A stretch of DNA of 63,781 nt, the filler included, from Stramenopiles sp. TOSAG23-6 (taxonomy: Eukaryota), in the NCBI GenBank assembly GCA_900128565.1. It is 9 parts of 9 records of this genome, joined end to end, with 100 filler letters (N's around TTAATTAATTAA, not from the genome) between each part and the next. Parts side by side here need not be neighbours in the genome. Positions count along the whole stretch, not along the records: positions 7,159 to 14,204 come from LT636618.1; positions 14,305 to 21,307 come from LT636619.1; positions 21,408 to 28,403 come from LT636620.1; positions 28,504 to 35,494 come from LT636621.1; positions 35,595 to 42,576 come from LT636622.1; positions 42,677 to 49,657 come from LT636623.1; positions 49,758 to 56,722 come from LT636624.1; 2 more parts are not named here. One strand, written 5' to 3'. Both the position numbers and the translations under genes were made by a program. The first letter of the stretch is position 1, and each line of letters starts with the position of its first letter. This document shows positions 852 to 56,540 of the stretch, piece by piece. Under the pieces are notes generated by a model that was not told the origin of the DNA, made no database searches, and saw only the letters and a program-made list of their open reading frames with translations.

Positions 852-886
<35 letters not shown>

Positions 887-12959: not shown

Positions 12960-14150
12960 TTAAGATGCAACAACATCATCCCACTTTTGTGCTTCATCGC
13001 TTTCACACCATACTTTGAAATCTTTCATGTTTATATCTAAATGTCCTATGTATTTTTGAAAAATATTTAAAAAAAAAAAATGTTAGGTACAAAATTTCGT
13101 ACTTAAAAAAAAGAAAAAAAAATGGAAAAAACTAAAACATACATGTTATGAGGATTTCGAATTACGCGTATTGGAGGATTTAATTGTTCTTGCATAAATT
13201 TTTGTGTAAATGTCGCCAACACTGGCATAGGTGAATGAAACATTTTTGCATGTATCATATAATTTTCATCAATTCGATTATGATAAATGTCCCATTCGAT
13301 ACCATTCAAATCATTGGCTCTTTTTGAACCATACCATGAGGCTGGATGTCTAGCCTGACCAGAATGTTTACCTTTACCAACACGAAAATTCACTTGAAAA
13401 TCTATATTATATCCAGTGTTTAAAATTAATTTTCTAAATTTCAATAAACAATCCGAAATTTTCACTATTGCGACACCTCTGGATAATCCACGTAACTGTA
13501 CAATCACAGATGTTGAGATTTTATTTGAATTATTATTATTATATCCATAATTGCAATATTTACGATATATCAATAAAGGTCGAGGATCCTTCAAAACAGT
13601 CCAATTATATTCTACTGTTGGAAGGACTATCGCATCAATTACACAAGAATAATGTTGTCTTGTTAAAATACCCGAATTATTTAGTTTTTCAATAAATACT
13701 ATAGCAGCATTGATACCTTCTGAGCCTTCTCTTGCCATATTCCATATTACTTTCGTCCTATGAGCTGATAGTTCAGTTGTTTTATTTTCTCCAAATTCAT
13801 TTTTGTTTTTCGCAGTTTCTAATTCCATTTTCGATAAATCAAAGTACCTTGTATATCTTGGAGAGATAACACAATTTATGTTATCATGTATTCGGCTTGC
13901 CGCTTTGATATTTCCTTCTAAAATGTATTTGAATGCAACCATCCAAAAAGAATGATGATCTATTTCTGCACCTCGTGCTTCCATCGCAAGTAAGTATTGT
14001 GAAAAAATATGTCAAAATTGAAATTCATTAGGTACAAAATTTTCTATGAAAAAGAAAAAATTGAAATTAAATTGGATAACTTACAAAAAATCCTCACTTT
14101 CTTGACCAGACCAACACGCTTTCAACATTACACCAATATGTTGACAGTTC
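12960..14150 (-). CDS. PPR-like plus SMR domain protein, 5' partial; introns 13048-13142 and 13992-14084
   Basis: VQLRGLSRGVA, RVGKGKHS and spliced NPHNIGHLDI SMR motifs; MLKAC and HYSCVIDA PPR-like helices. Confidence 0.7.
13048..13142 (-). mobile_element. Introner intron GT..AT, preceded by AT
   Basis: Removal restores SMR C-terminal N-I-G-H-L. Confidence 0.85.
13992..14084 (-). mobile_element. Introner intron GTAAGT..TT, preceded by TT
   Basis: Join TTT TT|A CTT GCG ATG is in frame. Confidence 0.8.
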
Positions 14151-14392
14151 ATATATTGTAAAAAAAATTAAATTCGAAATTTGTTAGGTACAAAATTTCG
14201 TACGNNNNNNNNNNNNNNNNNNNNNNNNNNNNNNNNNNNNNNNNNNNNTTAATTAATTAANNNNNNNNNNNNNNNNNNNNNNNNNNNNNNNNNNNNNNNN
14301 NNNNAATATTTCAAAAAAAAAAACTAAAATTTGTTAGGTACAAAATTTCGTACGAAAAATAAATTGGAATTTGAAAAAAAATTTAAACATAC

Positions 14393-16283
14393 ATGCCTCT
14401 TTCGAAGAGATAATTTGGAATCAAGATTATCCCTCTCCTGGCTCCAGTTAGGAAGGTCAACTAAATTTTCTTTCTGAAGATCTGTTTTTTTACTTTCAAT
14501 CATTTCGATATCTGACATTTTTTTGTTTTTTTCTTCTTCTGTACGAATCGTGATATGAATTTCAGGTTTTCCTGAGATTGATTTGTACGCTGCTACGGCA
14601 GTTTTTTCAGCCCAACTTTTATCATTATTAGTATTGTCAAATTCTTTATTTTTGTGGTTGTGAGGTTTGTTCATTGATGAACTACTTGGACACGAAATAC
14701 GACTACCATGATTATACAATGTAAATCCATGCTCTCGAACATCAACGCCAGATAATTGAACACAATCTGACACTCGCACACCGTATATTGTGAAAAATAT
14801 TTTTTTGTAAAAATATCGTTAGGTACAAAATTTCGTACTAAAAAATTAAATTTGAAATTAATTGTGAAAACGTACGTATACTTTATCCAATCCAAAGAAT
14901 ACAATAAACGCACAAGTTAGGGTCCAAATAGTAATACAAACAATGCCTAATAACTGTATTAAAAATTGATTACCATTTGCCAAAGAGTTCCCTTCCGGTA
15001 AACTAAGTCCAGCAGCTACTTTTTCATCAGTTGCAAAAATTCCAACAGCAAGACATCCCCAAATACCACAAAATCCATGAACTGAAGAAGCATCTAGAGG
15101 ATCATCAATTTCAAATTTTTCCAAAATCCAAGAAAAAAGTAAAAGAATTAAAGAACCAATAACACCAATACATATAGATGCAGCAGGAGATACAATGCCA
15201 CAAGATGCTGTGATAGAGACTGCTCCTGCAAGTATTGCATTAAGTGACATCTGAATATCATATACATTCCAGAAAAATTTAGTGAAAATAAGTGCTGTGA
15301 AGCAAGCACTAGCAGGAGCAAGAGTCGTATTCACAATCGCCAAAGCTGTTGTGTAAGTTCCGTTGCTCGTAACCCCTGGTCCAGAACTAGCATTAAAACT
15401 AAACCATCCAAACCAAGTATTGTGAAAAATATTTTTTTTTTTCCGTAAAAAAATCATTAGGTACAACATTTTCATGGTAAAAAAATAAATTCAAAATGAA
15501 TGATGAAAACGTACATAGAAGACCAGTACCAAGTGCGGTGAATATAATATTCTGAGGTGGTATTTTGCGACCCTTGGTAGCAAAAATAGGATATTTCTCT
15601 CCCCATCGTCCAGCTAGTTTTCGAGGATGCAACCAATTGTCTTCCGGTAAAAGAGGACCTAACAATCTGCTCATATTTCGTTGATTCGAATATTTCGTAC
15701 TAAAACGGCCCACACGAGGACCTACTAGTGTCGCGCCAACAAGACCACATAGACCTCCGACAGCGTGAACAACCCCACTACCGGCAAAGTCAATAAAACC
15801 ATAATGATCAAAACTTCGAGGCCACCTATCAGCATTTGTACCTGAAAATATTCCGTCACTACTCCATACTTGTCGAACTACTAAAGGGTAAACAAAGCCA
15901 GTTATTACTAAAGTATAGAAAAAGTATGCTGATATCTTTGTGCGTTCTGCGACAGCTCCACTGACAATAGTTGCTGACGTTGCTGCAAAAGTGAAAGAGA
16001 AAAACCAATTTGTTAATTCCGAACCTGACTTCAGATTACGCATCAAAAACGCTCCATTATCTGCATTTGCTATTGCAAAGCCTACCGCAAACCATGTAAG
16101 TGCTCCTAAACAAGTATCCGCGTAGTTTTTAAATATAATGTTGATGGCGGCCTTTTTCTGTACAGCTCCAACTTCAAGGACGAGGAAACCAACTTGCATC
16201 AAAAATACGTGCATTCCACATAGTAACAACCATACATTTTCGGAAGAAGCCACAACGTCAGTAAGGCCCTTAGAATTGGACAT
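14393..16283 (-). CDS. AMT: Ammonium transporter (Amt); introns 15415-15514 and 14783-14875; 3' partial
   Basis: FLMQVGF, TIVSGAVAER, DFAGSGVVH, spliced GLLWFGWFSFN, IDDPLDASSVHG. Confidence 0.95.
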
Positions 16284-16576
16284 CTTTCTGGTATATTATA
16301 ACTTCAAAAAATGAATGTGCTGCTTAAAATGTGTGTATCATCCAATCGGAGCATTCGTGTATATGTTTTTTTTAAAGCAATCGTTTGACAACTTGAACTG
16401 TTAAAAAATCCAATCAATCTCGAGAGAGTGTCATCGATACATACGACGAGGAGAGATTTATTTATCCGTTACAAATATTCTAGTACCGGGATCGGATGTG
16501 ATATGAAACGTTTGTAACAACTTGTGATCAAGTAGTCAAAAATGACGTAGTCACAAAAAGATACACAGACCAAAAA

Positions 16577-18776
16577 ATGTCTTATGACCAAGAAGAATAC
16601 GATTATAACAACTATCAATATGATCATAACAGTACATCACAAGAGCAATATGACTATACACAACAGTCCTACTATCAAAATGAATACGACTACAACGAAG
16701 GCTACGACGAACAGAGTGAATACGGAAATTATTACGCAGAAGGAAATTACGAAGAATCACAAGAATACTATTCTCAGGGATATGAAAATTACGAAGAAAA
16801 CACTGAGAATACGATAGATTCTAGTACTGATAACACTACACATGTTGTTGCAGTAGGTAGTCCAGTCAAGGCAATACGCGCAAATAGATTTCGTCTTGCC
16901 TCTGAAACAAGGGGGCGTTTAGAAGAACTTGTAGAGGCTGAGCCTGATAACATTCTCCATCTTGTAAAATTAGCAATAGCTTGTTCTAAATATGGCGATT
17001 CCAAAAATACAGCAAAGCATTTAGAATATGCTTTTTCTTTAGGCCTTACTGAAAGTAAATTAGTTTGCGCTGATATTGACATAAAATTAGCAAAAGTATA
17101 TAAAATATTAGGCGCAGCGCAGTTTCAGCTTTATAAAACAACAGCATATTTGAACCAAGATGTTTTATCTAAATCTTTCGATGCTTATAAATTGGCATTA
17201 AATGATCCAGAATATTCATCTGATCCTCATACGCTGCTTGAAGTATCAAATGTGTATAAATGTTTTGACTCTTATGAGGGAGCTCTTCAATGTCTAGGAG
17301 CAATAGCTAGCTCTACACCAGATTTCAAACACATTGGTACAGTTTTTATTTCAACTGCTGGAATATGGTTGAAAAAACAAAAGTGGAAAGAAACTATGCA
17401 AAGTTTGACAATGGCGAAACAATCAAAACCAAACGGATTTCAAGACTGGCATATGCTATTTCTTTTAGCGAGAGTGAACGAACTAGCAGCGATAAGCAAA
17501 TCTACAGAAAGTAGCTCTGTGGAAAAAAACGGGAAAAGTTCAAAAAATAAAAAAAGTTCCAAAAACAAAAAGCATAAGAAAAAACAAGTCAAAAACAGAT
17601 TCGTTGATCCCTCAAAGGTAAAACTTTATAACGCTGCATTTTTATCATTCAAAAAGGCAAACTCGAAACAGAAAAAAGGATCAGTGCCTATACCAAAAGA
17701 TTTGACTCAATGGCTCCACAATCCTGGCACTTGGACGTCCGTAGCAAAATTATGCGATAAATTTTTCTTTATATTTTGGTCTTTTCATTTATTCTCACAA
17801 GCACTCAATATGGCTGGAAAACAATTTCGAGACTGGTGGCCTCTAGCAAAAGCGTGCTATATTTGCCAACAAAAACAATTTGCCATTCAAGCAGTCCAAA
17901 ATCTGATCACTAGAAAACCAGCTCATTGGTTGCGATGTGTGCTCCATCAATGGAAAGGATTGCCACCTCCCACTCCTCCTTCAAAATCTGTCTCCGAATC
18001 AGAAACTCAAAAAGGGTCATCAAAAAAACTTAATATTAAGGAAAAACAACAAATAGACCGGCAAAAGCAAGCTTTGGAACAAAAAAAACAAAAGGAACAA
18101 GAAGAACAAGCAGCATGCATGTTTTATTTTTTTTCAAATTCGAATTTTTTTTCGTACGAAATTTTTTACCTAACTCTTTTTTTTTTAAATATTTTTCCAA
18201 AATACATTGGCAAAGAAAAAGAAACTTGAAGCCATTGCTGCTGCAACAAAAAAAGCTGCACAGGACGAAGGTGTAACAAAAAACGTTGAGAAATCAAATG
18301 TTAAAATAATGACACCAGAGGAAAAAGACCTTCTAGATCCAAAGTGCCCAGCTGAAACTCAAGTCGAAGAACGCGCTTACTTTCTTAAAAGACGGCGTGA
18401 AATGAGAGCAAAAGAAAAAGCACAATTTTTAGGTGCTCAGAAACTGCAAGCTTTGGTAAGAGGGCGAAAGGGTCGTCGAATAGGTCGTGAAAGATGGAGA
18501 AAACGACGCTGGGAATGTGCTATCATATGTCAAGCACAATATAGAGGAATTCTTGCTCGTAAGCGCGTTAGTAAAATGATAGAAGATTTAGACAATCCTT
18601 ATGCAGAGCTAGAAGATATGGAATCCAAAGTATCACAAAATCACCATACAACTCAATCTTCAAATAATTATCATAATGCCCAATATAATGGACAACACCA
18701 GCAAAATGGATACTGGAATAATGCAGCGACGCAAGCACAAAGCTATCAAATGCCAGCTACTCCACAACATGTGTAG
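16577..18776 (+). CDS. TPR-like plus IQ-motif protein with Tyr/Glu-rich N-terminus; intron 18117-18207; C-terminus cut by inversion junction
   Basis: Helical TPR-like repeats; LQALVRGRKGR and CQAQYRGILAR IQ motifs. Confidence 0.7.
18117..18207 (+). mobile_element. Introner intron GC..AT, preceded by AT
   Basis: Join GCA T|TG GCA links ORFs 16577 and 18207. Confidence 0.85.
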
Positions 18777-19328
18777 TGTTATCAGTACTAGAATCTATCG
18801 TATTCTCAGTGTTTTCTTCGTAATTTTCATATCCCTGAGAATAGTATTCTTGTGATTCTTCGTAATTTCCTTCTGCGTAATAATTTCCGTATTCACTCTG
18901 TTCGTCGTAGCCTTCGTTGTAGTCGTATTCATTTTGATAGTAGGACTGTTGTGTATAGTCATATTGCTCTTGTGATGTACTGTTATGATCATATTGATAG
19001 TTGTTATAATCGTATTCTTCTTGGTCATAAGACATTTTTTGGTCTGTGTATCTTTTTGTGACTACGTCATTTTTGACTACTTGATCACAAGTTGTTACAA
19101 ACGTTTCATATCACATCCGATCCCGGTACTAGAATATTTGTAACGGATAAATAAATCTCTCCTCGTCGTATGTATCGATGACACTCTCTCGAGATTGATT
19201 GGATTTTTTAACAGTTCAAGTTGTCAAACGATTGCTTTAAAAAAAACATATACACGAATGCTCCGATTGGATGATACACACATTTTAAGCAGCACATTCA
19301 TTTTTTGAAGTTATAATATACCAGAAAG

Positions 19329-21219
19329 ATGTCCAATTCTAAGGGCCTTACTGACGTTGTGGCTTCTTCCGAAAATGTATGGTTGTTACTATGTGGAATG
19401 CACGTATTTTTGATGCAAGTTGGTTTCCTCGTCCTTGAAGTTGGAGCTGTACAGAAAAAGGCCGCCATCAACATTATATTTAAAAACTACGCGGATACTT
19501 GTTTAGGAGCACTTACATGGTTTGCGGTAGGCTTTGCAATAGCAAATGCAGATAATGGAGCGTTTTTGATGCGTAATCTGAAGTCAGGTTCGGAATTAAC
19601 AAATTGGTTTTTCTCTTTCACTTTTGCAGCAACGTCAGCAACTATTGTCAGTGGAGCTGTCGCAGAACGCACAAAGATATCAGCATACTTTTTCTATACT
19701 TTAGTAATAACTGGCTTTGTTTACCCTTTAGTAGTTCGACAAGTATGGAGTAGTGACGGAATATTTTCAGGTACAAATGCTGATAGGTGGCCTCGAAGTT
19801 TTGATCATTATGGTTTTATTGACTTTGCCGGTAGTGGGGTTGTTCACGCTGTCGGAGGTCTATGTGGTCTTGTTGGCGCGACACTAGTAGGTCCTCGTGT
19901 GGGCCGTTTTAGTACGAAATATTCGAATCAACGAAATATGAGCAGATTGTTAGGTCCTCTTTTACCGGAAGACAATTGGTTGCATCCTCGAAAACTAGCT
20001 GGACGATGGGGAGAGAAATATCCTATTTTTGCTACCAAGGGTCGCAAAATACCACCTCAGAATATTATATTCACCGCACTTGGTACTGGTCTTCTATGTA
20101 CGTTTTCATCATTCATTTTGAATTTATTTTTTTACCATGAAAATGTTGTACCTAATGATTTTTTTACGGAAAAAAAAAAATATTTTTCACAATACTTGGT
20201 TTGGATGGTTTAGTTTTAATGCTAGTTCTGGACCAGGGGTTACGAGCAACGGAACTTACACAACAGCTTTGGCGATTGTGAATACGACTCTTGCTCCTGC
20301 TAGTGCTTGCTTCACAGCACTTATTTTCACTAAATTTTTCTGGAATGTATATGATATTCAGATGTCACTTAATGCAATACTTGCAGGAGCAGTCTCTATC
20401 ACAGCATCTTGTGGCATTGTATCTCCTGCTGCATCTATATGTATTGGTGTTATTGGTTCTTTAATTCTTTTACTTTTTTCTTGGATTTTGGAAAAATTTG
20501 AAATTGATGATCCTCTAGATGCTTCTTCAGTTCATGGATTTTGTGGTATTTGGGGATGTCTTGCTGTTGGAATTTTTGCAACTGATGAAAAAGTAGCTGC
20601 TGGACTTAGTTTACCGGAAGGGAACTCTTTGGCAAATGGTAATCAATTTTTAATACAGTTATTAGGCATTGTTTGTATTACTATTTGGACCCTAACTTGT
20701 GCGTTTATTGTATTCTTTGGATTGGATAAAGTATACGTACGTTTTCACAATTAATTTCAAATTTAATTTTTTAGTACGAAATTTTGTACCTAACGATATT
20801 TTTACAAAAAAATATTTTTCACAATATACGGTGTGCGAGTGTCAGATTGTGTTCAATTATCTGGCGTTGATGTTCGAGAGCATGGATTTACATTGTATAA
20901 TCATGGTAGTCGTATTTCGTGTCCAAGTAGTTCATCAATGAACAAACCTCACAACCACAAAAATAAAGAATTTGACAATACTAATAATGATAAAAGTTGG
21001 GCTGAAAAAACTGCCGTAGCAGCGTACAAATCAATCTCAGGAAAACCTGAAATTCATATCACGATTCGTACAGAAGAAGAAAAAAACAAAAAAATGTCAG
21101 ATATCGAAATGATTGAAAGTAAAAAAACAGATCTTCAGAAAGAAAATTTAGTTGACCTTCCTAACTGGAGCCAGGAGAGGGATAATCTTGATTCCAAATT
21201 ATCTCTTCGAAAGAGGCAT
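19329..21219 (+). CDS. AMT: Ammonium transporter, mirror copy; introns 20098-20197 and 20737-20829, third intron from 21220
   Basis: Identical reverse complement of 14393-16283. Confidence 0.9.
20098..20197 (+). mobile_element. Introner intron GT..TT, preceded by AT
   Basis: This removal restores the Amt GLLWFGWF motif. Confidence 0.92.
20737..20829 (+). mobile_element. Introner intron GT..AC, preceded by AC
   Basis: Restores DKVY|GVRV (Amt GLRV-like motif). Confidence 0.88.
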
Positions 21220-21618
21220 GTATGTTTAAATTTTTTTTCAAATTCCAATTTATTTTTCGTACGAAATTTTGTACCTAACAAATTTTAGTTTTTTTTTTTG
21301 AAATATTNNNNNNNNNNNNNNNNNNNNNNNNNNNNNNNNNNNNNNNNNNNNTTAATTAATTAANNNNNNNNNNNNNNNNNNNNNNNNNNNNNNNNNNNNN
21401 NNNNNNNAGGCCATGACGTATCCATACCCAATGTTCATACAGTGAAGAAAGATATAATAAAAGTGATTTGGTCTGTTTTATATTTTTCAATAATTCTAAT
21501 TATTAATGACTTGCAAAAGCTTCTTTAACAACTTTTCTTCTTCGAATATCCTTAAGACTTCGTCTCTTTCGTCTCGTCTTCTTCTTTGTACTATCACCGA
21601 TAATAGTACCATCTTCTG

Positions 21619-24600
21619 TCATGACACCACGCATTTTAATAGACTTGGTGGTTTGACATACCCTGGATGTGAGCCTCTAATTTCATAACTCCACATCATT
21701 TCGTTTGTTTCAATAACAAGTTTCCCTACTAAAATCTTGCCATAATCACTTGGAGTAAAGGACACAATGAAATTTGTACCACCAGATCCATATGGCTCAA
21801 GCACACCCTGTAGTGGATACACTTGAAATTCACTTGGTGAATTCGGAGTCATAAATGCTTTAAAGTTTGCTGTTGATTCGTCAATATTTGCAAGATCAAA
21901 CGAAATAGACGATGTTGTATGTAATGATGCTTGAATAGATATTACATCATCAACATCTGGCTCTTGAACATTTAGTATCATCTTATATCTCCATCGCCCA
22001 CCCGATTTTTTTGTAATGACAAATTCTGCAGGTTCATGAAAAGAACGCAATGGTTCAAACTTCATAAGATATTTCAAAGACTCTCCACTTTGAAAGATTT
22101 TATCCTTTAGAGCAGTGATGTGAAGTCCAGCCTTTACAAGAACTCTATTTTCATCACTACATTTCACTTCAAAATCAAATGACTCTGGTTCTGTTATTTC
22201 ATCCAAGCCTGGTAAATTAATAGTAAACTCTTTATTTATAGCATTACGAGCACGACAACGTAGTGTAATCTTTGGAGAGAATGGACAACATTCTGAAATA
22301 CCAATCAGAGGATATATCCATTGAAGTGGTGAACCATCAAAGTTTGTTGGGCCATCAATCACGCTTATTGTGACGGTGGCTCTCAATTCACATATTTTAT
22401 TAGGGGAAAACATATAAGGAATTTGTAAATTACCAAAGGGTGGAATGACACAGCGACTCCTTTTAGCAATTAATTGAAAAGAACCATTTGGTGATGGTTC
22501 AAACATCATATCACTAGCTATTGTTAATTCTTCTGGAAATGGATTTCGAAATACAAAGGAAGTCGATGTTGAATGTTCAGCTATAGCTGTGGTAGTTATT
22601 GGTTCCATCTCCATCGTTGGTGGAAGACCACGTCCACGTACGGTATACACCCATTCACCAACAGTTTTATTTGAAAATGTAACAACTGCATCTTCAATTT
22701 TCTCTGGGTCTAAAGAAGAAGGCGTGTATCGAACCATAACATTTGCAGATCCATATGGTAACAACGTAACAGCTGATGGAACGGTTGAAAAATTTGTCTT
22801 ATTATTTGTCTTTCCTTGTATCGTTAACTCAGCACCAGTTGGGTTTTCTAAATGAACTTGCTGGTCACAGTGTGCACCAACCGCACATTCCATGATTTGT
22901 AAAGGAATAGATTTTGCAGGATCCGCATCAAGTTCTAAGGCATACCAAAACTCACCAAGATCTTCATCAACAAATGTCACTGATCCATGCTGTTGACCAG
23001 CAACTAAGGGTGAGTATATCAACTCATAAGAACCTTCAGAATTTGGAGATAGTTTAAATGAACTATCACCAATTAAACCTTCACCATTTAATACTACTTC
23101 AAACTCTACTTGTTCATCTGTCGGATTTCCAAGTGATATTTCTACTGAAACAGCTTTTCGAACAGTAGCTTTAATATCAACCCTTTGTTCAGGTTCTGGA
23201 AGACTTGCTTGTACTTCAGCAGTGTACCATTGAAAACTACCATCATTGGGGTTTTTAAATGTAAGTGAACCACTGTAGGTACCACTTATTTGTGGATGTA
23301 TTACTAATTCATAATTAGATGATGAATTTGCATTAACTGTAATGGATGAAGGTCCAGATACATGTGATATATCAGATTCGACTGTAAAAGTGACTTTTTC
23401 AGCCGTTCGATTCTGTACAGTAAAAGATTTCTTCAACGTGTCTCTAGCTTGGCAATGTATGATAATATGATCTTCTGAGAGTGGCTCCTCACCAATACCT
23501 TTTAACCGAAATGAGAATTTATCTCCTGTTGGCGGGTTTAGTAATGTCAAGTTAGCATCTTCTTCACAAATCCACGTTGGTGCAAAATGTAATTCATATG
23601 TTGCAGTCGTTTTAGGTAGTACATTTAACGTACCATTGCCTTTAAATGCAGATGACCCTGTAAAAGTAGCTTTAAGAGTCCATTTGGCATCTGTATTATT
23701 TTTTATTGGGATAGATTGAGTTATGACCTTACTTGCAGGAGCAATAAATTCAAGATATTTTTCTACAGCATTTGCAGTGACAGTTACCTTTACTTCATAC
23801 ACTCTAACATCTAAGGGCGAACGTAAAATTATTTTGCAGGGATAAATACCTGGATCTCTAGGACAAAAAACGGTGCTTACTCTAGATACTCCATTTGTTG
23901 GACCGTCAACAGTTGCAAGGGACACTTCTTGTGGTGCAGAAAAAAAGGGTGAATTTATTTCAACATTAAACGGTAAACGAAAATCCCTAATTTGTTTCAA
24001 TCGTCCTCTCATTGCTTTACGAGCTCTTGAAGATAATGCATCTAAATACACATTTTTAGCTTCCTCATACATTCTATTTTCTTGTACAATTTGAATATCT
24101 TTGACCACTTGAGGTTTCATTGGGGTATTAAACTTAATACTATCCAAGCAATTAGGCAAACTAGCTGTACCCAAAATTTCATATACAAATTCACCAATCT
24201 CCTCAGCTAGAAATATAATTTTACATGAATATTCACCAACCATTAAAGGCATAAATGAAACATTTATATCAGAACTTTCGCCTACTTTTAATCGAATATC
24301 TTTTGTATTCAAAACAAAAAAATCCGGATATTTAATTTTCTTCCTTTCTTTTGTTTTTTTGTTTTTTGGACTTTTTGGACTTTTTGGACTTTTAACAGTT
24401 TTGTCGCCAGTGTCAATTCGTTCTTGAATAACTGAAATTTTAAATTTACTCGATTTTGTAAATGGATTTGTCACTGTAACATTAACCTTTTCTACCTCAT
24501 ACGTTGGGCATTTTGCACGAAATGTTAATGTTGGTTTATGACCGGCAGCTCTCGATTCCAAATTAAACACTCTGTATTTTGGAAAAATATTTCAAAATTT

Positions 24601-27600: not shown

Positions 27601-28403
27601 CCACCATTGCTCTCGCCATCCTTCTCGTGAATCGAATCATCAATAGCAGTTAAAACACTCATAGTGGTAGTTGGCCGACCATCAAGACCAAGAGGTGCTG
27701 GTGCTTGCGTAATTGAAAATTCTGGAAATTTAGTCAAATTAATAAGCATTGCCGCTGGAATATTTCCATTATTTAATAATGTTAGTCTTTGTCCAACTGA
27801 AGCCCCGAGGGCTACATCTCCAAAATCAAATTCATCTTCTTGAATTCGTACTTTAGGTACCACTGCATTTGCATTTATACCTAATTTACGGGGAAGTCCA
27901 CATCGTACATTCACTACAATTAATGATGTTTTTGCATCATACACCCTCGGTTTTAATGCTTCCAAGGTAATAGTCAAGTCTTGTGTTCCACCTGGTAATA
28001 ACCGGCCTTTCTCAGGACTACACGAAATCCCAGGAATGACAGAAGATATCCAAAACACAGCTGGAGATTTCCCAATATTTCGCATTGTTATATTTTTTTG
28101 ATGTGTCAAGCCTACTGCAACTTCATCGAAATTTATTGTAGAAACTTTTTGTTTAAATCCGATTCGAGCTTCTTCCAGGACACCTCTACAAAATAAACTT
28201 TGTGATTTGCCACCTGAAATTTTCAATTCAAGAGAATCTTCCGCTTTGCCCTTTAATCGAGGGGTAAAAGTGACCCCGACATCTATGTATTTTGGGAAAA
28301 TATTTCAAAATTTTTTTACAAAAAAAAAATGTTAGGTACAAAATTTCGTACGAAAAAAAAAACTCGAATTTGAAAAAAAAAAAAAACATACATTTCTTCA
28401 AGC
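21619..28403 (-). CDS. CFAP47: Cilia- and flagella-associated protein 47-like, 5' partial; 5 introner introns and one apparent +1 frameshift near 26321
   Basis: Tandem ASH/Ig-like beta domains plus calponin-homology segments (YSLSENILCKW...FDEDLSDGVLLCSLLLSHAP). Confidence 0.85.
24572..24680 (-). mobile_element. Introner intron GT..AG, preceded by TT
   Basis: Join gives AATLVFNL. Confidence 0.9.
24826..24936 (-). mobile_element. Introner intron GT..AT, preceded by AT
   Basis: Join LEGSNSFRIN is in frame. Confidence 0.85.
25952..26073 (-). mobile_element. Introner intron GT..AT, preceded by AT
   Basis: Join LLAQY|NALLTML. Confidence 0.88.
27224..27338 (-). mobile_element. Introner intron GT..AT, preceded by AA
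   Basis: Join DPMKK|VPHHLNF. Confidence 0.85.
28285..28391 (-). mobile_element. Introner intron GT..AT, preceded by AT
   Basis: Join LEEIDVGVTFTP. Confidence 0.8.
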
Positions 28404-35438: not shown

Positions 35439-35594
35439 GTATGTTTTATTTTTTTTCAAATTCGAATTTTTTTTCGTACGAAATTTTGTACCTANNNNNN
35501 NNNNNNNNNNNNNNNNNNNNNNNNNNNNNNNNNNNNNNTTAATTAATTAANNNNNNNNNNNNNNNNNNNNNNNNNNNNNNNNNNNNNNNNNNNN

Positions 35595-45376: not shown

Positions 45377-45474
45377 TCAATGAAAAAAAAAGACTAAAAA
45401 CACTCGTAAAAAATTACAGGAACCTGTAGAGGATTATAATTTTTAAATTTTAGTTTATTGCAAAGACAAGAGGG

Positions 45475-48458
45475 ATGTCCCTTTTTTCTGCCCGTGAGTG
45501 GTGGTCTGTCAGAGGAAGTGCAAACGAGGAATTTGACAGTGGTTGCTTATGTGTGGGTGACGTTACTAATGAAAAAAAATACACCAACAAAATTGTCGTT
45601 GGTAATTTACAAGGAATGTTGCGTGTATATAGTCCGAATACGCAAGAATATAATATAGATCATCTTTTGCTTGAACAACAACTTTCATATCCTATATTAC
45701 AAGTAGAAGCTGGTTGTTTTTGTTCTTCACTGGGTAAAAAAACATGCATTGCAATTTTACATCCACGAAAATTAGTAGTTTATTCATTAAATCCAAAAGG
45801 AAGTTTTGAAGATCAAAAAATGGAGGAAACTGCAGCTACCAAAAGTAACGATAAATTAAGTGCAACATACTATGAATTGGTCAAGATCTACGAGCATGTG
45901 CTAGGAATTAAAGGACTCCACTTTACATCTCGAGGAATGACTTGTGGTCCATTCGGTGGTGTTACTGGTAAAGATTATATTTGCGTTCAAAGTATGGATG
46001 GCCAGCTTGCATTCTTTGAACAAGAAGTTCACGCATTTACTCGCTATTTGCAATCTTGTTTACTGCCCGGTCCAATATGTTATGTTCCTCCTACCGATAG
46101 CTTTGTGACGTGCAACTCTCGGATGGAAATCGAAAGTTACACATATCACGTACTTGCTTCGGCAGGTTCAGTGACAGAAACTGTAACAATGAAGCAAGCA
46201 AATTTGTCGGGTATTTTGAGTTCAAATGAAAGAGTTAGTGGAGGAAGAAAATTACTAAAAACAAATTGGAAGCTAAATATTGGAGAGTACGCTAATTTTA
46301 TTTCTGTGGCACATTTTTTGCCAACTATACAACCGGTTATTATTATTCTTGGAGAGAGAACATTATTTTGTGTTGACGTGGAAGGGGTACTAATGATGCA
46401 GGTAAGATTACCATACACTGCTGCGTGTATGGTGTCGTTTAAAGTAGGAATCAGTGCTGTAAAAACTAACCCAGTCATACGCTCAGATGATACTCCATTT
46501 ATCAATAATAGTTTAGATAATTTGGTAATATTAACAAATGAAGGTCGTATGATGGTTTATAGTTGTAGGCCAGATTCAAATGCGACAAATAAAGAATCTT
46601 CACTGGATCAGAAATCAAGTGGAAATGGTATTGTTTCAAATCCAAGCGGGAATTACTCAAAAAGTAAAGGTACTTCCGTTGTATGTCGTCTCATTTGGGC
46701 ATCAAAGTTGGCTGTAACTACACATTATGCAGTTGCAGTTCGCGTCGCATCATTTGGTGGATGTCGTGGTCTTATTTGTGTATTGGATGAATCCGGTACG
46801 CTTTGTCTAAGTTATTTAGGAACAACACCGCCATCAAAAAGCTCCGGCTTCCTTGGCGACTCGAAAGATTTGAACTATGATGAAATGGACATAGAACATC
46901 GCAAATTGCTAGAAAAAATACGAAAAAGTCAATCGAATATTGGTAGAATCAACAAACCATCCTCTTCATTGGTTTTAAAAGCACAAGTTCCGTCTTTAGT
47001 ATCAGTTGCTGATACATCTGTTATAGATTGTGGTCTAGTAAATACTGACGATATTACTGTCGCTGGGCAAAGACTAACTGAATCACGTACTACTGGAGAT
47101 CGTATTGTTGAGGTGATAGTGAGACTGTATGTAACNCAAACTGATACAGATACATTATATAACATTAATCTTGCTATATTCGCTCCAGTATGTGTGCTTT
47201 TACCTTCAAAGTCAATACAAATATCTTCCATTGATGGTAGCTCCAAGGAGCCTCTATTAATACCTTTGCGATTCCAAGTTTGTAAAGAATTTCTTGTCAC
47301 CCAACTAAATGTGAATATTGTTGCAGCATATACAACTAGTGATAGCCAAGAACCTCGTACAAGCAAGTGTAGCTTTCGTCTACCTTTTTGTCTTGTTTGT
47401 CGTGTTGTTCCACCAATTAAAAACACTGCATTCAAATTTACAATAAAGGTGAATCAAGAAACTCCACCATTGGGTGATATGTTTGCAGATATGCTCCAGC
47501 AACCAGAAATAGACAAAAAAATTCGCCAGAAATGCGTTCAAAATTCTGCAAATGTTATAACTTTTCTGTATAGAAATGATATTGACTGCTCTATTTTAGT
47601 ATCAAAAACAAAGGAACAAGGAACACGAAGATATCGAATACAAAGCTCTCAATTAGATGCACTTATCGTTGTTGCAGAAGAACTAATACGAAGGATAAAA
47701 AGTTCATATGATGTTGGTAAATCTTTTGATATTGGTGAGAAGAAACATGAAGATCCAATAAGCGATTTAAAAATATCATATGAAGATCCTCTCCCATTAG
47801 CAGATTTCTTTTCTAAAATTGATAATCACTTCAATTGCAGAAAAATACTCAAAGAACAATTACGTCTTTTGGAGAGTACATTTCATCATGAATTCCAGAT
47901 TTATATATATTTTTCATAGAAAATTTTGTACCTAACAATTTTTTTTACTAAACAATTTTTTTTCACAATACATGTAGAGCGCATCAGTTTCGTGTTATAC
48001 AAAAGCGAATGTTGCTTCGTTTTAAAGATAAAAATTCACCACCTTTACAGCACTTAGATGTCCTTCTAAGTAGTACACATAATGAACTCATGTCAATGGG
48101 GGACACAGTTGTGAAAAGTCAAAATGTCCTTTCTGAATCTTCACGACAATTATCATCAACGTTAATACTTCTTCTATTACTTATGAAGTATAGGTTTGAT
48201 TTATCAGATGAGGAAATGCATATACTAGAAGCTACAATATCTCCATGTATTAGTGATGACGATGAAGAGGGTTGGGAGGAAAGAACCGATGCTGCAGTGA
48301 CTCATTTACTTAGGAATGTGCTCTCCAAGACGGCTTCAAGTGAAAAGGCATCAAGTATTTCTACTTTTCTAAAAATGCCAAAAAAAACAACCAAATTGAA
48401 GAAACATATTTCTATTTTATGTGATAGGCTTTCTAAAGGTGGTAAACTTATTTCCTAA
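45475..48458 (+). CDS. BBS9: Bardet-Biedl syndrome 9 (PTHB1); intron 47876-47973
   Basis: MSLFSAREWW, ICVQSMDG, YLGT and spliced RAHQFRVIQKRMLLRFKDK, GWEE. Confidence 0.95.
47876..47973 (+). mobile_element. Introner intron GT..AT, preceded by GA
   Basis: Restores the BBS9 RAxQFR motif. Confidence 0.88.
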
Positions 48459-49170: not shown

Positions 49171-49606
49171 CTAGATCCCACCATATTTTTTATGATATTT
49201 ATTCATCTTGGGCTTATTTTCATAATCATCAGACAATAAACTATTTTCTTCATTAAACCCAACCACTCCAATGTTTTCATCCTTATATAAAACTTTCTCA
49301 ATAGATGGCATGATTTGACTATTTTTCGTGCGATTATATTCTATATATGAGTACCCTAATTTTTTTAAAATATGTCAAAATTCAAAATTTGTGAATATAT
49401 TAACATTAGATACGAAATTTGGTACAAAATTAAATTTTAAAAAGAATTAAATTCAAAAAAAAAAAAATGAAAACGTACAGGTAAATCCTAAACATGCAAT
49501 TAAAATTCCTATCCAATTGTGTACAGGAAGATGAACTCCAAATAAAGGGACTGTGACTAAAACAATCAGTGGTACTTTTGCACACATTAAAACAGTGCAA
49601 TACACA
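49171..49606 (-). CDS. Nucleotide-sugar/triose-phosphate transporter C-terminus, 5' partial; intron 49356-49478
   Basis: KVPLIVLVTVPLFG...NWIGILIACLGFTWYSY after splicing. Confidence 0.7.
49356..49478 (-). mobile_element. Diverged introner intron GT..AG, preceded by CT
   Basis: GTACGTTTT donor, palindromic core; restores GFTWYS. Confidence 0.8.
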
Positions 49607-50305
49607 TTCATTATGAAAAATATTTCAAAAATTAAAATCGTTAGGTACAAAATTTCGNNNNNNNNNNNNNNNNNNNNNNNNNNNNNNNNNNNNNNNNNNN
49701 NTTAATTAATTAANNNNNNNNNNNNNNNNNNNNNNNNNNNNNNNNNNNNNNNNNNNNTATGTAATGAAAACACATTATTAAGAATAATATACTTTTGTAG
49801 TTCTTGTAGTTAGGACTACACGTAATAAGTATACTACGTAAGTTGACTCAAGTGTAAATTCTGAGATGAAATTGAAAAAGAGATTTTTGATTTGAGATTT
49901 GGCATTTCGAAAAGTTTGAAATTTTGAATTTTTTGTTTTTTTTTTCGTACGAAATTTCATAGCTAACAAAAACAATTTAAAAAAAATATATTTTCCTACA
50001 ATAAATGTAAACAGAAGTTTTACTAGATATATTCTATTTAATTTAGAATTTGGTTTAGTAGAGAAAAAGAACTCATAGCATTGAGTAAACTGTTGTAATT
50101 CATACAAAAAAGTGCTTACTATTAGATTGAATTTAAATTAGATCACAGATAAAAAAAATGAATTTCTTAATTTATAGCGGCTTTTTTTGTTTGCGTTTTT
50201 TGACCACGTGTCGTCGTGCGTACCCAACCAACAAGAACTTCGAAGTTGTTCGGTACCACCAAGGTCTTCATATTACCTAATACTTGCGCAACGTAAAAAA
50301 GCATT

Positions 50306-51415
50306 ATGTTACAAATTGAAATGAATGACCTTTGTTGTCCAATTACACTGGATATATATAAAGATCCAGTTGTTGCTGCTGATGGTCACACGTATGAACG
50401 AGCTGCAATTTTGCGCCACTTTCAAACAAAGAATACGTCGCCTTTAACAAATGAAGTGTTGCCTAATAGAAATCTAGTACCAAACTTGCATTGTAAATCT
50501 CTATGTGTTGCATGGAAAGAAAAACAAGCAAGAATGAAGAGTGATAGTGTTGCTAAAGACAAAAAAGAAGATTTCGAGCGGTATACTATAGATGCAAATG
50601 CAGGTGATAGTGACGCACAATTCAATCTTGGTTTGTGCTATTTTTATGGTGATGGTGTTGCTGTAGACAAAAAAGAAGCTTTTAAGTGGTATACTAAATC
50701 TGCGAATGCTGGTAATAGTGACGCACAAAATAATCTTGGTTGTTGCTATGAAGATGGTCATGGTGTTGCTCAAGACAAAAAAGAAGCTTTTAATTGGTAT
50801 ACTAAATCTGCAAATGCAGGTAATAGAGATGGACAACATAATCTTGGTCATTGCTATAAAAGTGGTCATGGTGTTGCTCAAGACAAAAAAGAAGCTTTCA
50901 AGTGGTATTCTAAATCAGCTAATGCTGGTAATAGTAGTGCACAATGCAGTCTTGGTTTATGCTATGAAGATGGTGTTGGTGTTGCAGTAGACAAAGAAGA
51001 AGCTTTCAAGTGGTTTACTAAATCGGCTAATGCTGGTGATAGTGACGCACAAAATTATCTTGGTTTGTGTTTTATGGATGGTGAAGGTGTTGCTAAAGAT
51101 AAAAAAGAAGCTTTCAAGTGGTTTACTAAATCTGCAAATGCTGGTGATAGTTATGCACAAAACAAACTTGGTTATTGCTATGAACATGGTAATGGTGTTG
51201 CAGTAGACAAAAAAGAAGCTTTCAAGTGGTATATGAAATCTGCTAATTCTGGTGGTAGTATGGCACAACATGATCTTGGTGTTTGCTATTTTAATGGTAT
51301 TGGTGTTGCTGAAGACAAAAAAGAAGCGTTCAANTGGTTTACTAAATCAGCTAATGCAGGTTATATACATTCAAAGGAATGGATTCGTCGTTTTTTTTCA
51401 GAAAAAAGTATATAA
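50306..51415 (+). CDS. U-box plus SEL1-repeat protein
   Basis: CCPITLDIYKDPVVAADGHTYERAAI; about seven 36-aa SEL1 repeats. Confidence 0.92.
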   Translation: MLQIEMNDLCCPITLDIYKDPVVAADGHTYERAAILRHFQTKNTSPLTNEVLPNRNLVPNLHCKSLCVAWKEKQARMKSDSVAKDKKEDFERYTIDANAGDSDAQFNLGLCYFYGDGVAVDKKEAFKWYTKSANAGNSDAQNNLGCCYEDGHGVAQDKKEAFNWYTKSANAGNRDGQHNLGHCYKSGHGVAQDKKEAFKWYSKSANAGNSSAQCSLGLCYEDGVGVAVDKEEAFKWFTKSANAGDSDAQNYLGLCFMDGEGVAKDKKEAFKWFTKSANAGDSYAQNKLGYCYEHGNGVAVDKKEAFKWYMKSANSGGSMAQHDLGVCYFNGIGVAEDKKEAFXWFTKSANAGYIHSKEWIRRFFSEKSI

Positions 51416-51708: not shown

Positions 51709-51716
51709 CCGGGTAA
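51709..51716. promoter_or_regulatory. CCGGGTAA promoter motif
   Basis: About 140 nt upstream of ATG 51853. Confidence 0.5.
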
Positions 51717-51852
51717 CGTACGAATTTCTCTATAATTTCTCAGTTCCTGAGCAGTTCTTTTGGCCGGCCATCGATCAGCCTCAGGAACTCAAAAACAACT
51801 ATAAACAAGTTTTTGTAGTTATAAAAGTTTCTTTCATCTTATCGTATAAAAG

Positions 51853-53124: not shown

Positions 53125-55488
53125 ATGTCTGTGCATAGACGAATACCAAGGTTAAATAACAGTCAAATAGAGAAAACGAAAAAAAACATGACAAAATTAA
53201 AAAACACACCGAAAAATGAATTCTTCTCGTTCGACGACTCAAAAGGAATTCTACAACGTTTTTATCCATCAAACAATAGTATATGGAATATATTTATATT
53301 TGTGTGTTTTGTTCTCATCATATCTCTCTGTAACGAACGTATTAGTACAGCGTTTATAGTTAAAAACCAAGAGAATACTATAGAACAACCAGGGATTGTA
53401 TATACCAGAATTGATCAAACATATAACTGGGAATATGAAGAAACTGGAAATGGACAGAGATTTAGTGAGCAAAAAACAATGTTTGATCCAACGGAAACTA
53501 ATACGGGTGATGACTTAAACAACATTGCTAAAGGAAACGATCCAAATAGTGGAGTAGAAGATTTTTGTTTTGAACAATTAAAAAGTCCTTCAGGCAATTC
53601 GACTGTCATTTGGGTTGAAACAACTCGTTGCTCCACCGTACTCGCTGATTACTTGTTACTATCTACTGTTTTACTTTTTATTATATTAACTCTATATTGC
53701 TTTTGTAGATACGGACGAGTATCATGGAGTACTGAAGGTCATACTAAATCTATACAAGCTTTGTGTTGTAGTGAAGATGGTTATACACTCTACTCAGCAT
53801 CATTAGATGGAACAGTTAAAATTTGGAATGTTGAAGATGGGGTTTGCATTAAAACTCTTAGAGGACACAAAGGTAAACCTGTTTTGGCTTTATGTTTAGG
53901 CAAAAAAAGTACCAAAACATATCTATTTACAGGCGGTGCTGGCGGTATGGCTTTAATGTGGGATGTTAAAAATATTGCTGCATGGCGTGGTGCTCTCCAT
54001 GAAGCACCAAAGTCCCATTTGACGCAAGGTACAGTTCAATTAAATATTACTGCACATGCTCCATATCCAATAACATCTTTATTCGTAAGTATTGATGGTT
54101 GTTCGTTAATTACTGGTGGTGGTGATGGGTATTTAAGAGCGTGGAATTTAGTCTCAGGCGATTGTACGTTTGCAATTTCAAAATTTTAATTTTTTTTTTT
54201 CGTACGAAATTTTGTACCTAATGATTTTTTTACAAAAAAATATTTTTTCACAATACTTTAATTAAAACAATTAGAGGTCATGATTTTTTTGTGCGTCAAG
54301 TTTTATGTGATGACTCTATCAATACAGTTTATTCTTGTAGTGATGATTTAACAATAAGAGCATGGAATGCTACGAGTGGAGGTTGTTTGCATACCCTAGC
54401 ATGTATGTTTTATTTTTTTTTTTCCGGTAAAAAAAAAATCAAATTTTTTTTTCGTACGAAATTTTGTACCTAACGATTTTTTTACAAAAAAATATTTTTC
54501 AGAATACATCACATAAAGATGCAGTTACATGTATTTGTTTAACTAAAGATGATCAAATTATAATATCTGGATCTAGAGATGATTCAATTAAATTATGGAA
54601 TGCTAAAACAGGACTTCTCTTACGTACTTTAATGGGACATGATGAGGATGTATGTTTTATTTATTTTTTTTTTTTAACCGGAAAAAAAAAAATCAAAAAT
54701 TTTTTTTTTTGAAAAATTTTGTACCTAACAGTTTTTTTTTGATTTTTTACTAAAAAAATATTTCTCCAAAATACATGTACAATGTTTATGTTCATCAACA
54801 AATCCTAAAGATAGATTTTTTTCTGGATCTCGAGATAATACAATAAAAATCTGGTCCATTACAACTGGAAAGTGTCTTCAAACACTCCGCGGTCATTGCA
54901 TGTTTTATTTTTTTTTTTTTCATACGAAATTTCGTACCTAACAAATTTTTTATTTTTTTTTTAACAAAAAAATCAATTTTTTTTTTCGTACGAAATGTTG
55001 TACCTAACAAATTTAAGGTTTTTTTTTGAAATATTTTTCCAAAATACTTGTATTGATACAACATCAATGAATTATTTTACAGATAATTCATATACTTCAC
55101 ATAAAAACACTAAAAATACACAATTTAAAAAAGATGATGTTGGTGGTGTATTTGCTATTATTGCGAGTATAGATGGTAATACATTATATAGTGGAGGAAG
55201 TGACTCTAAAATTATTATTTGGGATATTTCAACGCCTCTGATGAAGACGGGGAAAATATTGCTACAATTTGATATTAATGATGTTAAAAAAAATTGGTCA
55301 TTCTGATTCAATACTCTGTTTTGCATTACATTCAATGAAAAACACGAAACCTAAATATTTATTTTCTGGTTCTGCTGATCAAACAATTATCATATGGGAT
55401 GTTAATGAGCCTAAAAATATTAAAATTTTGAATCGAAAATTAAAAGTGTTGAGAGGTCATACAGCAGTTACAAGTTTACAAGTTGATT
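53125..55488 (+). CDS. Membrane-anchored (2 TM) WD40-repeat protein; 4 introner introns and +1 frameshift near 55290
   Basis: GHTKSIQALC...SASLDGTVKIW; GH..WD repeats restored by splicing. Confidence 0.85.
54164..54258 (+). mobile_element. Introner intron GT..TT, preceded by TT
   Basis: Restores GDLIKTIRGH. Confidence 0.9.
54403..54509 (+). mobile_element. Introner intron GT..AT, preceded by AT
   Basis: Restores HTLASHKDAV. Confidence 0.9.
54650..54776 (+). mobile_element. Introner intron GT..AT, preceded by AT
   Basis: Restores GHDED|VQCL. Confidence 0.9.
54898..55049 (+). mobile_element. Introner intron GC..TT, preceded by TT, double core
   Basis: In-frame join LRGHCIDT. Confidence 0.82.
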
Positions 55489-55580
55489 GTATGTTTTATA
55501 TGAATTTCTAATTTAATTTTTTTTCATACGAAATTTCGTACCTAACGATTATTTTTTTGAAATATTTTTTCACAACTCAT
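55489..55580 (+). mobile_element. Introner copy GT..AT whose flanking exons are out of phase
   Basis: Consensus match; donor is phase 1, acceptor is phase 2. Confidence 0.7.
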
Positions 55581-56540
55581 TATCACCTGTGCACGATTCA
55601 AAAAGAGTACAAAAATTGTAAACGATAAAAATAAATCTGAACTTTTTGCTGTAGGCGATTCAATAGGCGCTGTGATGATTTGTAGTGCTGATACTAAGAA
55701 CCCTGGTCCAATTGCTACTTGTAATGGTCATTCTGGAGAAATTAATGATTTGGATTGGGATTCGACTGGTCAATATTTGTTAACAGCGTCGTCTGATTTT
55801 ACTGTACGAGTACGTTTTCATTATGAATTTATGAATTTATTATTTTTTTGGTACGAAATTTTGTACCTAAACAAATTTTTGATTTTTTTTTTTTTTGCCA
55901 TGTACGTTTTCATCATGAATTTCAAATTTATTTTTTTTCATACGAAATTTTAATTTTTGTGTTTGCACGCAATTCTGTAGCTAACAAATTTTGAATGTAG
56001 AACATAGTTTTTAATTCCACAGATTTGGGATCTCAGATCACAATCTGTCACAGAAAAAATGTTAGGTACAAAATTGGGTACGAAAACAGAGTACACGAAA
56101 TCTCAGGATTTGAATGAAAATAAAAAAAATACAGAAAATACATTGATTCGGTTGACTGCTTTAAAAATAATTTATACTCATGGAAAAATCAGCTGTTGTC
56201 GATTTTGTCCGGAAAATAATAATTGCTTTGTTGCGGGTATTTCATGTAAAGGCGGAAAGAATTCACTACGTGTATACAATATCTGTCCTGATGTATGTTT
56301 TCATCATGAATTTCGAATTTATTTTTTTTTCATAGGAAATTTTGTACCTAACAAAAAACCAAAAAAAAATGTAAATATTTTCACAAAATCCATGTTACAC
56401 TTAAATCTGAAATGATAACTTCACATCTCTCTCCAGGTCCTGAATATATTGAAATGCGTATAAAGGATAGTATGACCTCTCTGGAATTTTCTTCGGCATC
56501 TCAATTATTATTCTCTGACCAGAGAGGGCTCATTTGGTCT
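55581..56540 (+). CDS. WDR13-like WD40 protein, partial; introns 55810-56022, 56293-56393 and from 56541
   Basis: ITCARF, GHSGEINDLDW...ASSDFTVRIWD, CCRFCPENNN. Confidence 0.65.
55810..56022 (+). mobile_element. Compound introner intron GT..AG with a second copy starting at 55902
   Basis: Two GTACGTTTT starts; restores TVR|IWD. Confidence 0.8.
56045..56141 (-). mobile_element. Antisense introner copy inside WD40 exon, flanked by AT/AT
   Basis: Minus strand reads GTATTTT...TTTTCGTACCCAATTTTGTACCTAAC...GACAG. Confidence 0.7.
56293..56393 (+). mobile_element. Introner intron GT..AT, preceded by AT
   Basis: In-frame join to ORF 56412. Confidence 0.85.

Follow-up and report, generated by a model that had tools for sequence, protein, structure and literature searches.

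Must a spliceosomal intron end in AG, or can it end in whatever dinucleotide happened to stand where it arose? The question is raised by a stretch of 63,781 nt from Stramenopiles sp. TOSAG23-6 (GenBank assembly GCA_900128565.1), here called the window, in which nine contigs of ~7 kb, arranged from longest to shortest, are connected by spacers (44 N, then a 12-base linker with stops in all frames, then another 44 N). The window harbors a family of short, similar elements that interrupt coding sequences and start like ordinary introns. Among the 28 full-length copies with both ends fixed, however, 26 terminate in a dinucleotide other than AG (AG in 2/28), in line with an earlier note on this DNA, according to which the family does not require AG. 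Very probably, these copies are spliceosomal introns born from a high-copy, non-autonomous mobile element (an introner) with an AT-preferring target-site duplication (TSD) of 2 bp, and their 3′ cut is fixed two bases past the TAC at the end of the element (TAC+2).

Copies were located by nhmmer using a 10-seed profile and by a core-motif scan; mirrored copies were removed, and those in the inverted arms of contigs 3 and 5 were counted one time each. In total, ~40 copies or fragments were found in ~59 kb of unique sequence, i.e., roughly one per 1.5 kb, and full and partial copies are spread over nine contigs and at least eight different genes at unrelated positions. Copies are ~90–150 nt long, and the introns measure 90–127 nt including the final dinucleotide. 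Alignment A1, comprising 26 of the 28 copies, revealed three conserved blocks (5′ end, core, and 3′ block) and an identity to the consensus of 84.6% in well-aligned columns. The 5′ block is the 9-mer GTATGTTTT, which occurs 19 times (1.7 expected), and a second subfamily starts with GTACGTTTTC. Position 1 is G in 26/26 and position 2 is T in 25/26 aligned copies, positions 3–9 are conserved, and GC donors are found in two copies of the full catalogue (one of them in alignment A1). The 5′ splice site is strong, GTATGT-like, and reminiscent of yeast. Within the core, TACC.AA is invariant (26/26) and resembles a branch point (TACCTAAC); this putative branch motif is one base longer than the classical motif, lies 33–48 nt from the intron end, and is followed by a T-rich tract. 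The 3′ block is A/T-rich and terminates in ...AAAATAC. Measured against U2-type GT-AG introns, the family therefore has a 5′ GT or GC with extended consensus, a branch-like motif, and a pyrimidine tract, and it lacks the AG end. Intron phases 0, 1, and 2 are evenly represented (9, 9, and 8 copies).

The element appears to be abundant beyond the window. In a DNA metagenome, 8223 contigs fell on a 5.3-kb stretch, nearly all of them on elements, and the summed depth of element bins was 10^2–10^4 times that of exon bins, a ratio that is not a copy number and suggests that the element is present in very many copies. At least seven copies are located at the end of a contig or of the window or no more than ~12 nt away from it, a pattern to be expected when a high-copy repeat breaks an assembly. 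The exact 22-nt core had no match in viral_contigs and none in metagenome_contigs, so that these collections yielded neither further copies nor empty sites.

The evidence that carries the duplication is a correspondence between the intron end and the exon flank. In 19 of the 26 non-AG copies, the dinucleotide following TAC is the same as the one that closes the exon ahead of the 5′ GT; these are 13 AT/AT, three TT/TT, two AC/AC, and one GT/GT copies (Table 1). The earlier note had reported 19/25 and had pointed to the rare TT, AC, and GT cases; all of these are present, and the recount still exceeds shuffled 3′ dinucleotides by far (mean of 10.65 matches; 19 or more in 7/200,000 shuffles). The match is sharply delimited, with 23/26 and 21/26 at the two positions, 12/26 at the next position, and 6–9 of 25–26 at the others of ten neighboring offsets. 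As it is restricted to two positions, the repeat comprises 2 bp, not 3 or 4. When an element inserts at a 2-bp staggered cut, its constant ends come to be flanked by a locus-specific direct repeat of 2 bp, as found here. Two other kinds of duplication were considered and rejected: a 4-bp duplication of NN plus GT, for which the extra two positions match in only 12/26 and 9/26 copies, and a TA duplication inside GTA/TAC ends with a palindromic 8-bp target, which predicts the loss of two codons per junction, where none was seen.

Could the element simply end in ...TACAT and insert bluntly after AT, without any duplication? The AT end in 18/28 copies, and in five of the seven mismatched ones, would fit. 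The eight non-AT ends (four TT, two AC, one GT, and one unclear), however, match their own flank in six cases, which was equaled in 4/200,000 random draws, and blunt insertion is therefore very unlikely. As for the mismatches, two of the seven belong to copies whose degenerate 3′ ends could not be placed (35682 and 55489), and their overall number is unsurprising, since about half of 2+2-base duplications are expected to have changed at 84.6% identity. The mismatches at 20098 (CTA/CTT) and 11014 (GAC/GAT), previously described as synonymous third positions, agree with the open reading frames (ORFs). Both AG-ended copies are cut at TAC+2 as well, one of them being a single T-to-G change away from its flank. 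The flanks of the 28 copies themselves are AT (15), TT (5), AC (3), AA (2), GT (2), and GA (1), with neither TA nor AG (0 each). Hence, AT accounts for 15/28 flanks compared to a background of 10.2% (p = 1.4e-8), which bears out the AT-preferring 2-bp duplication proposed earlier; that the TT, AC, and GT duplications each differ from AT by one change further suggests AT as the preferred target. As AG occurs in 0/28 flanks, the targets were not shaped by selection for a good 3′ site.

The same correspondence bears on a spread through RNA, in which excised introns would reverse-splice into transcripts and then be copied to DNA. All 28 catalogued copies are sense-oriented, the inverted repeat described below is weak, and no transposase was seen in the long ORFs of the window, all of which such a route would accommodate. 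Reverse splicing would, however, carry along the dinucleotide of the donor locus and predicts no locus-specific match, and the restriction to sense copies would be expected just as much if antisense insertions in exons, being unspliceable, were selected against. We therefore consider RNA-mediated spread improbable.

If the copies are introns, removal of the element plus two bases (element+2) should leave coding sequences intact. The ORF test compared the longest open frame on either side of a copy and could be applied to the 26 copies that have both exons. In 24 of these 26, the cut must lie 2 (mod 3) bases past TAC (binomial p = 5e-10 versus one-third), and removal of element+2 from five successive introns of one gene yields a single open frame. 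Homologous proteins provided a second line of evidence. For copy 47876 in BBS9, only element+2 yields a long frame, which is gap-free against 12 homologues, and cutting three further bases loses a residue present in all of them. (P0001, a 100% BBS9 match, was rejected as RNA evidence, as it is a DNA-derived ORF running into the intron.) In the ammonium transporter gene, the junctions at 20098 and 20737 are gap-free against eight related transporters, and the split codon at the former restores a conserved tryptophan of the family. The WD40 exon retrieved only generic multi-repeat proteins among cluster representatives, which were of no use for checking junctions, so these were judged by the internal repeats of the gene. 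Five repeats in a row show no difference in their W-x12-[GS]H spacing, and three of them are split by the copies 54164, 54403, and 54898. Furthermore, the exon after the GT/GT copy at 32025 starts at position 11 of the Ank profile, which, under the Ank consensus, leaves room for exactly one split codon.

Two junctions are directly covered by RNA. In X6 record 12, a contig from a poly(A) metatranscriptome, 32720–32804 passes directly into 32906–32981, and 32805–32905 is skipped, i.e., 101 nt corresponding to the 99-nt copy plus one AT; the intron has three possible registers, none of which is GT-AG. A second contig (X6 record 11) joins 31240 to 31347 and skips 31241–31346, a degenerate family-like intron of 106 nt that reads GT..AT or TG..TA on the gene strand. 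Its flank is GT, so the upstream dinucleotide is kept and a register ending at the TAC-equivalent is excluded. At both loci, DNA contigs of run X3 (records 3 and 4) pass from the exon into the element. Together with the frames and the homologue alignments, the two RNA joints support the earlier claim that splicing removes the element and one TSD copy: the copies behave as introns and are removed as element+2.

A splicing rule by which the last two intron bases must equal the last two bases of exon 1, kept by selection, would likewise give a 19/26 match and had been named by the earlier note as an alternative. It is contradicted by mismatched copies that are nevertheless joined correctly: apart from the two with unplaced ends, all five mismatched copies fit element+2 between long ORFs, the GA/AT junction in BBS9 and the AT/TT junction in the transporter align exactly with homologues, and the intron of X6 record 11 is spliced with flank GT and end AT. 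Such a rule is extremely unlikely.

The RNA contigs also bear on excision at the DNA level, comparable to the internal eliminated sequences (IES) of ciliates. TA-bounded eliminated sequences are precisely lost together with one repeat copy, which resembles the removal seen here, and the joined forms were encountered only as contigs of an RNA library that might contain DNA. On the other hand, the elements are in place in the single-cell-type DNA runs and in the DNA metagenome, the joined forms come from poly(A) RNA, with none among the DNA joints listed, and the conserved parts of the family coincide exactly with the signals used by a spliceosome, namely 5′ site, branch motif, and T-tract. Contigs alone would be compatible with DNA excision, but the filled DNA and the conserved signals make it very unlikely. 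A role of a U12-like minor spliceosome, or of AT-AC introns tolerating varied 3′ dinucleotides, might be considered, as the ambiguous register of the AT/AT class also permits AT...AC ends and only a single indel separates the branch-like motif from either consensus, U2-type or U12-type. However, all copies have a GTATGTTTT-like 5′ end, which differs from the U12-type consensus, the conserved branch-like motif lies 33–48 nt from the 3′ end, and the mismatched, RNA-verified intron retains the G of exon 1 and rules out an end at the TAC-equivalent. We assign this possibility a very low probability.

The family thus combines many similar copies, frame-intact removal, and a locus-specific TSD, which are the marks of introners. 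In the favored scenario, a transposase with a 2-bp staggered cut would have inserted the element and duplicated 2 bp of the target, preferably AT, leaving the element between two copies of the dinucleotide. The spliceosome, supposedly the major one, would then cut in front of the initial G of the element and, at the other end, precisely two bases past its TAC. Element and downstream duplicate would be removed together and the original coding sequence restored, so that the intron would end with whatever the target was, i.e., AT, TT, AC, or GT. DNA transposition is what we infer from the duplication.

The earlier note had gone further and had suggested an introner of the type of miniature inverted-repeat transposable elements (MITEs) on account of the 2-bp TSD and of terminal inverted repeats (TIRs). 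Complementarity of the ends does exist at the consensus level, where GTATGTTTT and AAAATAC form seven pairs with one bulge and 85% of cells are pairable. In the second (GTACG...) subfamily, GTA/TAC alone is complementary according to our reading of alignment A1. The pairing values are, however, reached by shuffles, and single-sided changes are uncompensated. TIRs of MITEs are recognized by the transposase and usually comprise 10 bp or more. The end complementarity is hence a property of the consensus that is compatible with a short TIR and demonstrates neither such a repeat nor a helix in the RNA, and the MITE-type label is the weakest part of the earlier interpretation.

Several observations weigh against an introner of this kind. 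The inverted repeat is short (3–8 bp), with compensatory changes at 0/7 pairs, RNAalifold returned no consensus structure, no long ORF within the window contains a transposase domain, and no autonomous element was found there. With the ends as placed, 35682, 55489, and the composite 6537–6700 do not fit element+2. RNA support is limited to two junctions, both AT-ended (one AT/AT and one degenerate with a mismatched flank), and no contig among the RNA records listed covers a TT, AC, or GT end. Likewise, among the records listed for the contig part that was compared, none bridges 32025 or 32245, with uncovered parts counting as no evidence, and a protein search with the 42-amino-acid exon between these two copies gave no RNA-derived peptide candidate. 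Metatranscriptomes may hold DNA, and a joined contig could in principle represent an empty-site allele; no empty site was found among the DNA joints listed, and no insertion polymorphism was seen. Finally, the assembly is fragmented and contains at least two frameshifts, which can mislead frame tests.

How, then, is the 3′ site chosen without AG? An AG is found between the putative branch motif and the inferred end in 7/26 copies. In copy 54403, a CAG directly follows the T-tract 7 nt before the AT end (54496–54509); it is out of frame and its use leads to a stop codon, whereas a cut at TAC+2 agrees with the frame and with the spacing of the WD repeats. As the distance between branch motif and intron end varies from 33 to 48 nt, the 3′ cut is not at a fixed distance from the branch motif; it is, however, always two bases past the 3′ block of the element. 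This points to a 3′ site set by its position relative to the 3′ block, with a relaxed AG check in the host. More specifically, and as a tentative suggestion, the 3′ splice site in this lineage may be read not as AG but as the position two bases past the ...AAAATAC block, possibly aided by pairing of the first intron bases (GUA) with its UAC. Among the introns of the window with a tabulated 3′ dinucleotide, ~27/31 end without AG. If the positional reading were true, this non-AG majority would be explained, upstream AGs, among them the CAG behind the T-tract, would be skipped, and a transposon duplicating 2 bp other than AG could become an introner; in that event, the second splicing step of the host would no longer check for AG, or would do so less strictly.

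Table 1. Copies and related features of the element family in the window, with exon flank/intron end and the evidence for each (positions along the window).
Feature	Position	Strand	Flank/end and peculiarities	Evidence
c1a	6734–6851	+	AT/AT	Profile search; frame needs element+2
c2a	7161–7253	+	AT/AT, terminus TCC	Profile search; 5′ exon cut by contig start
c2b	7652–7741	+	AT/AT, 5′ GTTTGT	Profile search; ORF frame test
c2c	11014–11106	+	AC/AT mismatch, synonymous third position	Core scan; ORF frame test
c2d	13048–13142	-	AT/AT	Profile search; ORF frame test
c2e	13992–14084	-	TT/TT, 5′ GTAAGT	Profile search; ORF frame test
c3a	18117–18207	+	AT/AT, GC donor	Profile search; ORF frame test
c3b	20098–20197	+	AT/TT mismatch, ammonium transporter	Mirror 15415–15514 (-); frame; 8-transporter alignment
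c3c	20737–20829	+	AC/AC, terminus TAT	Mirror 14783–14875 (-); frame; 8-transporter alignment
Partial copy cut by contig end	21220–21307	+	Flank AT	Mirror 14305–14392 (-); profile and core scan
c4e	24572–24680	-	Flank TT, AG end at TAC+2	Profile search; ORF frame test
c4d	24826–24936	-	AT/AT, terminus TTC	Profile search; ORF frame test
c4c	25952–26073	-	AT/AT	Profile search; ORF frame test
c4b	27224–27338	-	AA/AT mismatch	Profile search; ORF frame test
c4a	28285–28391	-	AT/AT	Profile search; 5′ exon cut by contig end
c5x, degenerate family-like intron	31242–31347	+	Flank GT, end AT	RNA contig X6 record 11; frame
c5a	31848–31944	+	Flank AT, AG end at TAC+2	ORF frame test
c5b	32025–32117	+	GT/GT, inside ankyrin repeat	ORF frame test; Ank profile positions
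c5c	32245–32345	+	AC/AC	ORF frame test
c5d	32807–32907	+	AT/AT	RNA contig X6 record 12; DNA contig X3 record 4 enters element
c5e	33061–33169	+	AT/AT	ORF frame test
Partial copy cut by contig end	35439–35494	+	Flank AT	Mirror 28504–28559 (-); X6 record 14 fit stops at 35438
c6a	35682–35773	+	Flank GT, degenerate 3′ end, boundary uncertain	Profile search; frame misfits TAC+2 as placed
c6b	37002–37099	-	AA/AT mismatch, terminus TTT	Profile search; ORF frame test
c7a	47876–47973	+	GA/AT mismatch, in BBS9	Gap-free with 12 homologues only under element+2
c7b, family-like without usual 3′ block	49356–49478	-	AG end	Profile search; frame
c8a	54164–54258	+	TT/TT, WD40 gene	ORF frame test; WD spacing kept
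c8b	54403–54509	+	AT/AT; out-of-frame CAG 7 nt before inferred end	Frame; WD spacing
c8c	54650–54776	+	AT/AT	ORF frame test; WD40 gene spacing analysis
c8d	54898–55049	+	TT/TT, GC donor, doubled core	Core scan; frame; WD spacing
c8e	55489–55580	+	Flank TT, degenerate 3′ end, boundary uncertain	Profile search; frame misfits TAC+2 as placed
Composite of two copies	55810–56022	+	AG end	Core scan; frame
c8f	56293–56393	+	AT/AT, terminus TCC	Core scan; ORF frame test

Some members of the family deviate from the simple copy. Composites with two cores or two 5′ ends, in tandem or nested, are found at 6537–6700, 54898–55049, and 55810–56022 (all +), the first of which starts with GCATAC. A truncated antisense copy (56047–56118, within the region 56047–56143 on the + strand) lies in an exon of the WD40 gene, where the frame stays open and ~30 codons are added between WD40 repeat elements; it is either an exonized antisense insertion or an unrecognized intron. 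Given the GTA...TAC ends of the element, an antisense copy likewise starts with GTA and stops with TAC.

The window DNA has a G+C content of ~33% and encodes ciliary and housekeeping proteins of eukaryotes, namely BBS9, a HYDIN/CFAP65-like protein, SF3A1, U-box/Sel1 proteins, an ammonium transporter, and a WD40 protein. The closest named relatives of BBS9 are from stramenopiles (~36% identity), and sequence of the window was also found in two small DNA runs, in seawater metagenomes, and partly in poly(A) metatranscriptomes. The host is an uncultured marine flagellate with an AT-rich genome, and probably a stramenopile. Searches of the window with Rfam (gathering thresholds) and ARAGORN gave no match, and hence no small nuclear RNA. 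A scan of neighboring ORFs for introns outside the family gave too noisy an output and was left unused. Paralogous proteins with a U-box and Sel1 repeats are encoded on two contigs at 181–1845 (-) and 50297–51415 (+), the latter gene containing tandem repeat units of ~108 bp (784–1608 of contig 8). A single open frame of ~2100 codons at 56824–63132 (+) stands out by 46% G+C, compared to ~33% elsewhere in the window; it matched no Pfam family above threshold and only weakly, below threshold, a phage baseplate family. Just downstream of it, at the window end, lies a copy of the element.

Regarding the assembly itself, the two ends of contig 3, and likewise those of contig 5, are inverted duplicates of each other (14305–16856 versus 18757–21307, 2552 bp, 99.9%; 28504–30208 versus 33790–35494, 1705 bp, 100%), which look like fold-back chimeras from amplified DNA and not like biology. 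The outer ends of both fall in the near-palindromic core of the element. Apparent frameshifts occur at an A8 run in otherwise continuous coding sequence (about 55270–55285) and in a lysine-rich low-complexity stretch at 26321–26568 (-); both are probably assembly errors.

The one public gene model that was compared, P0121, illustrates the consequences for annotation. It represents the ammonium transporter gene (19317–21307, +), bears a EukProt label starting with GSMAST32, and agrees with the window in every base of the exons that it retains. It drops three coding segments, replaces the sequence around the junctions at 20098 and 20737, and runs into the element at 21220. The deleted segments look like forced introns, a pattern of a predictor restricted to GT-AG. 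It is therefore likely that proteomes of this uncultured marine group, where predicted by GT-AG rules alone, contain systematic errors at the sites of these elements.

It is known that introners can carry TSDs and co-opt splice sites, and that introns derived from transposons can have non-canonical ends. Tc1/mariner-type MITEs generate a 2-bp TA duplication and have TIRs of tens of bp; the present family shares the 2-bp duplication, but its duplication is AT-preferring and variable, with TA in 0/28 flanks, and its putative TIR comprises 3–8 bp. The introners of Micromonas pusilla, Aureococcus anophagefferens, and a wider catalogue have duplications of 3–9 bp and GY-AG ends, with the AG either carried by the element or co-opted from the duplication (PMC11282704, PMC9860276). 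The family described here resembles them in its many near-identical short copies at unrelated positions, its short TSDs, the partial splicing signals it carries, and a boundary whose placement lets splicing take out one of the duplicates and leave the mRNA as it was. Unlike in these introners, the TSD is 2 bp long and provides AG in 0/28 flanks, yet it is used as the 3′ end. Within the literature accessible to us, no paper on such introns in marine stramenopiles was found, and the supplements of introner surveys might list the lineage; in the accessible text of a stramenopile single-cell paper, introns appear only in the methods (PMC5778133).

Other lineages allow closer comparisons. In Fritillaria borealis, MITE-derived introns possess a TIR and a TSD, an exonic TAC duplicate gives rise to an AC end, and splicing is attributed to a permissive major spliceosome (PMC11282704). 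As in our family, these introns are transposon-derived and the duplicated target supplies a non-AG 3′ end. Their 5′ end, however, is also non-canonical (AG-AC, AG-AT), whereas the present family combines a canonical-looking 5′ site and branch motif with a free 3′ dinucleotide, in a protist host. Introns of Amoebophrya have direct repeats of 3–5 nt, and inverted repeats of 8–20 nt that form hairpins; their 5′ end lacks a conserved signal, and a search for U1 was negative (PMC7789003). Common to both cases are a marine protist host, repeated introns, direct repeats overlapping the boundaries, an ambiguous cut, and many dinucleotide combinations; a 2-nt repeat, a strong 5′ site, and no predicted hairpin set the present family apart. 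The nonconventional introns of euglenids lack GT, branch motif, and pyrimidine tract and are released as circles (PMC11282704). They share TSD-like junction repeats and complementary ends with our family, which, unlike them, conserves all three spliceosomal signals. What appears to be new here is the use of a 2-bp duplication as the 3′ end whatever its sequence, in introns whose 5′ site and branch motif look canonical. This would be a further example of relaxed splicing, one confined to the 3′ dinucleotide rule, and would imply that neither the length nor the sequence of a transposon's target duplication need limit the creation of introns. In Fritillaria and Amoebophrya, degeneracy affects both intron ends, and the present family could offer a cleaner natural experiment on the recognition of 3′ splice sites than either of them.

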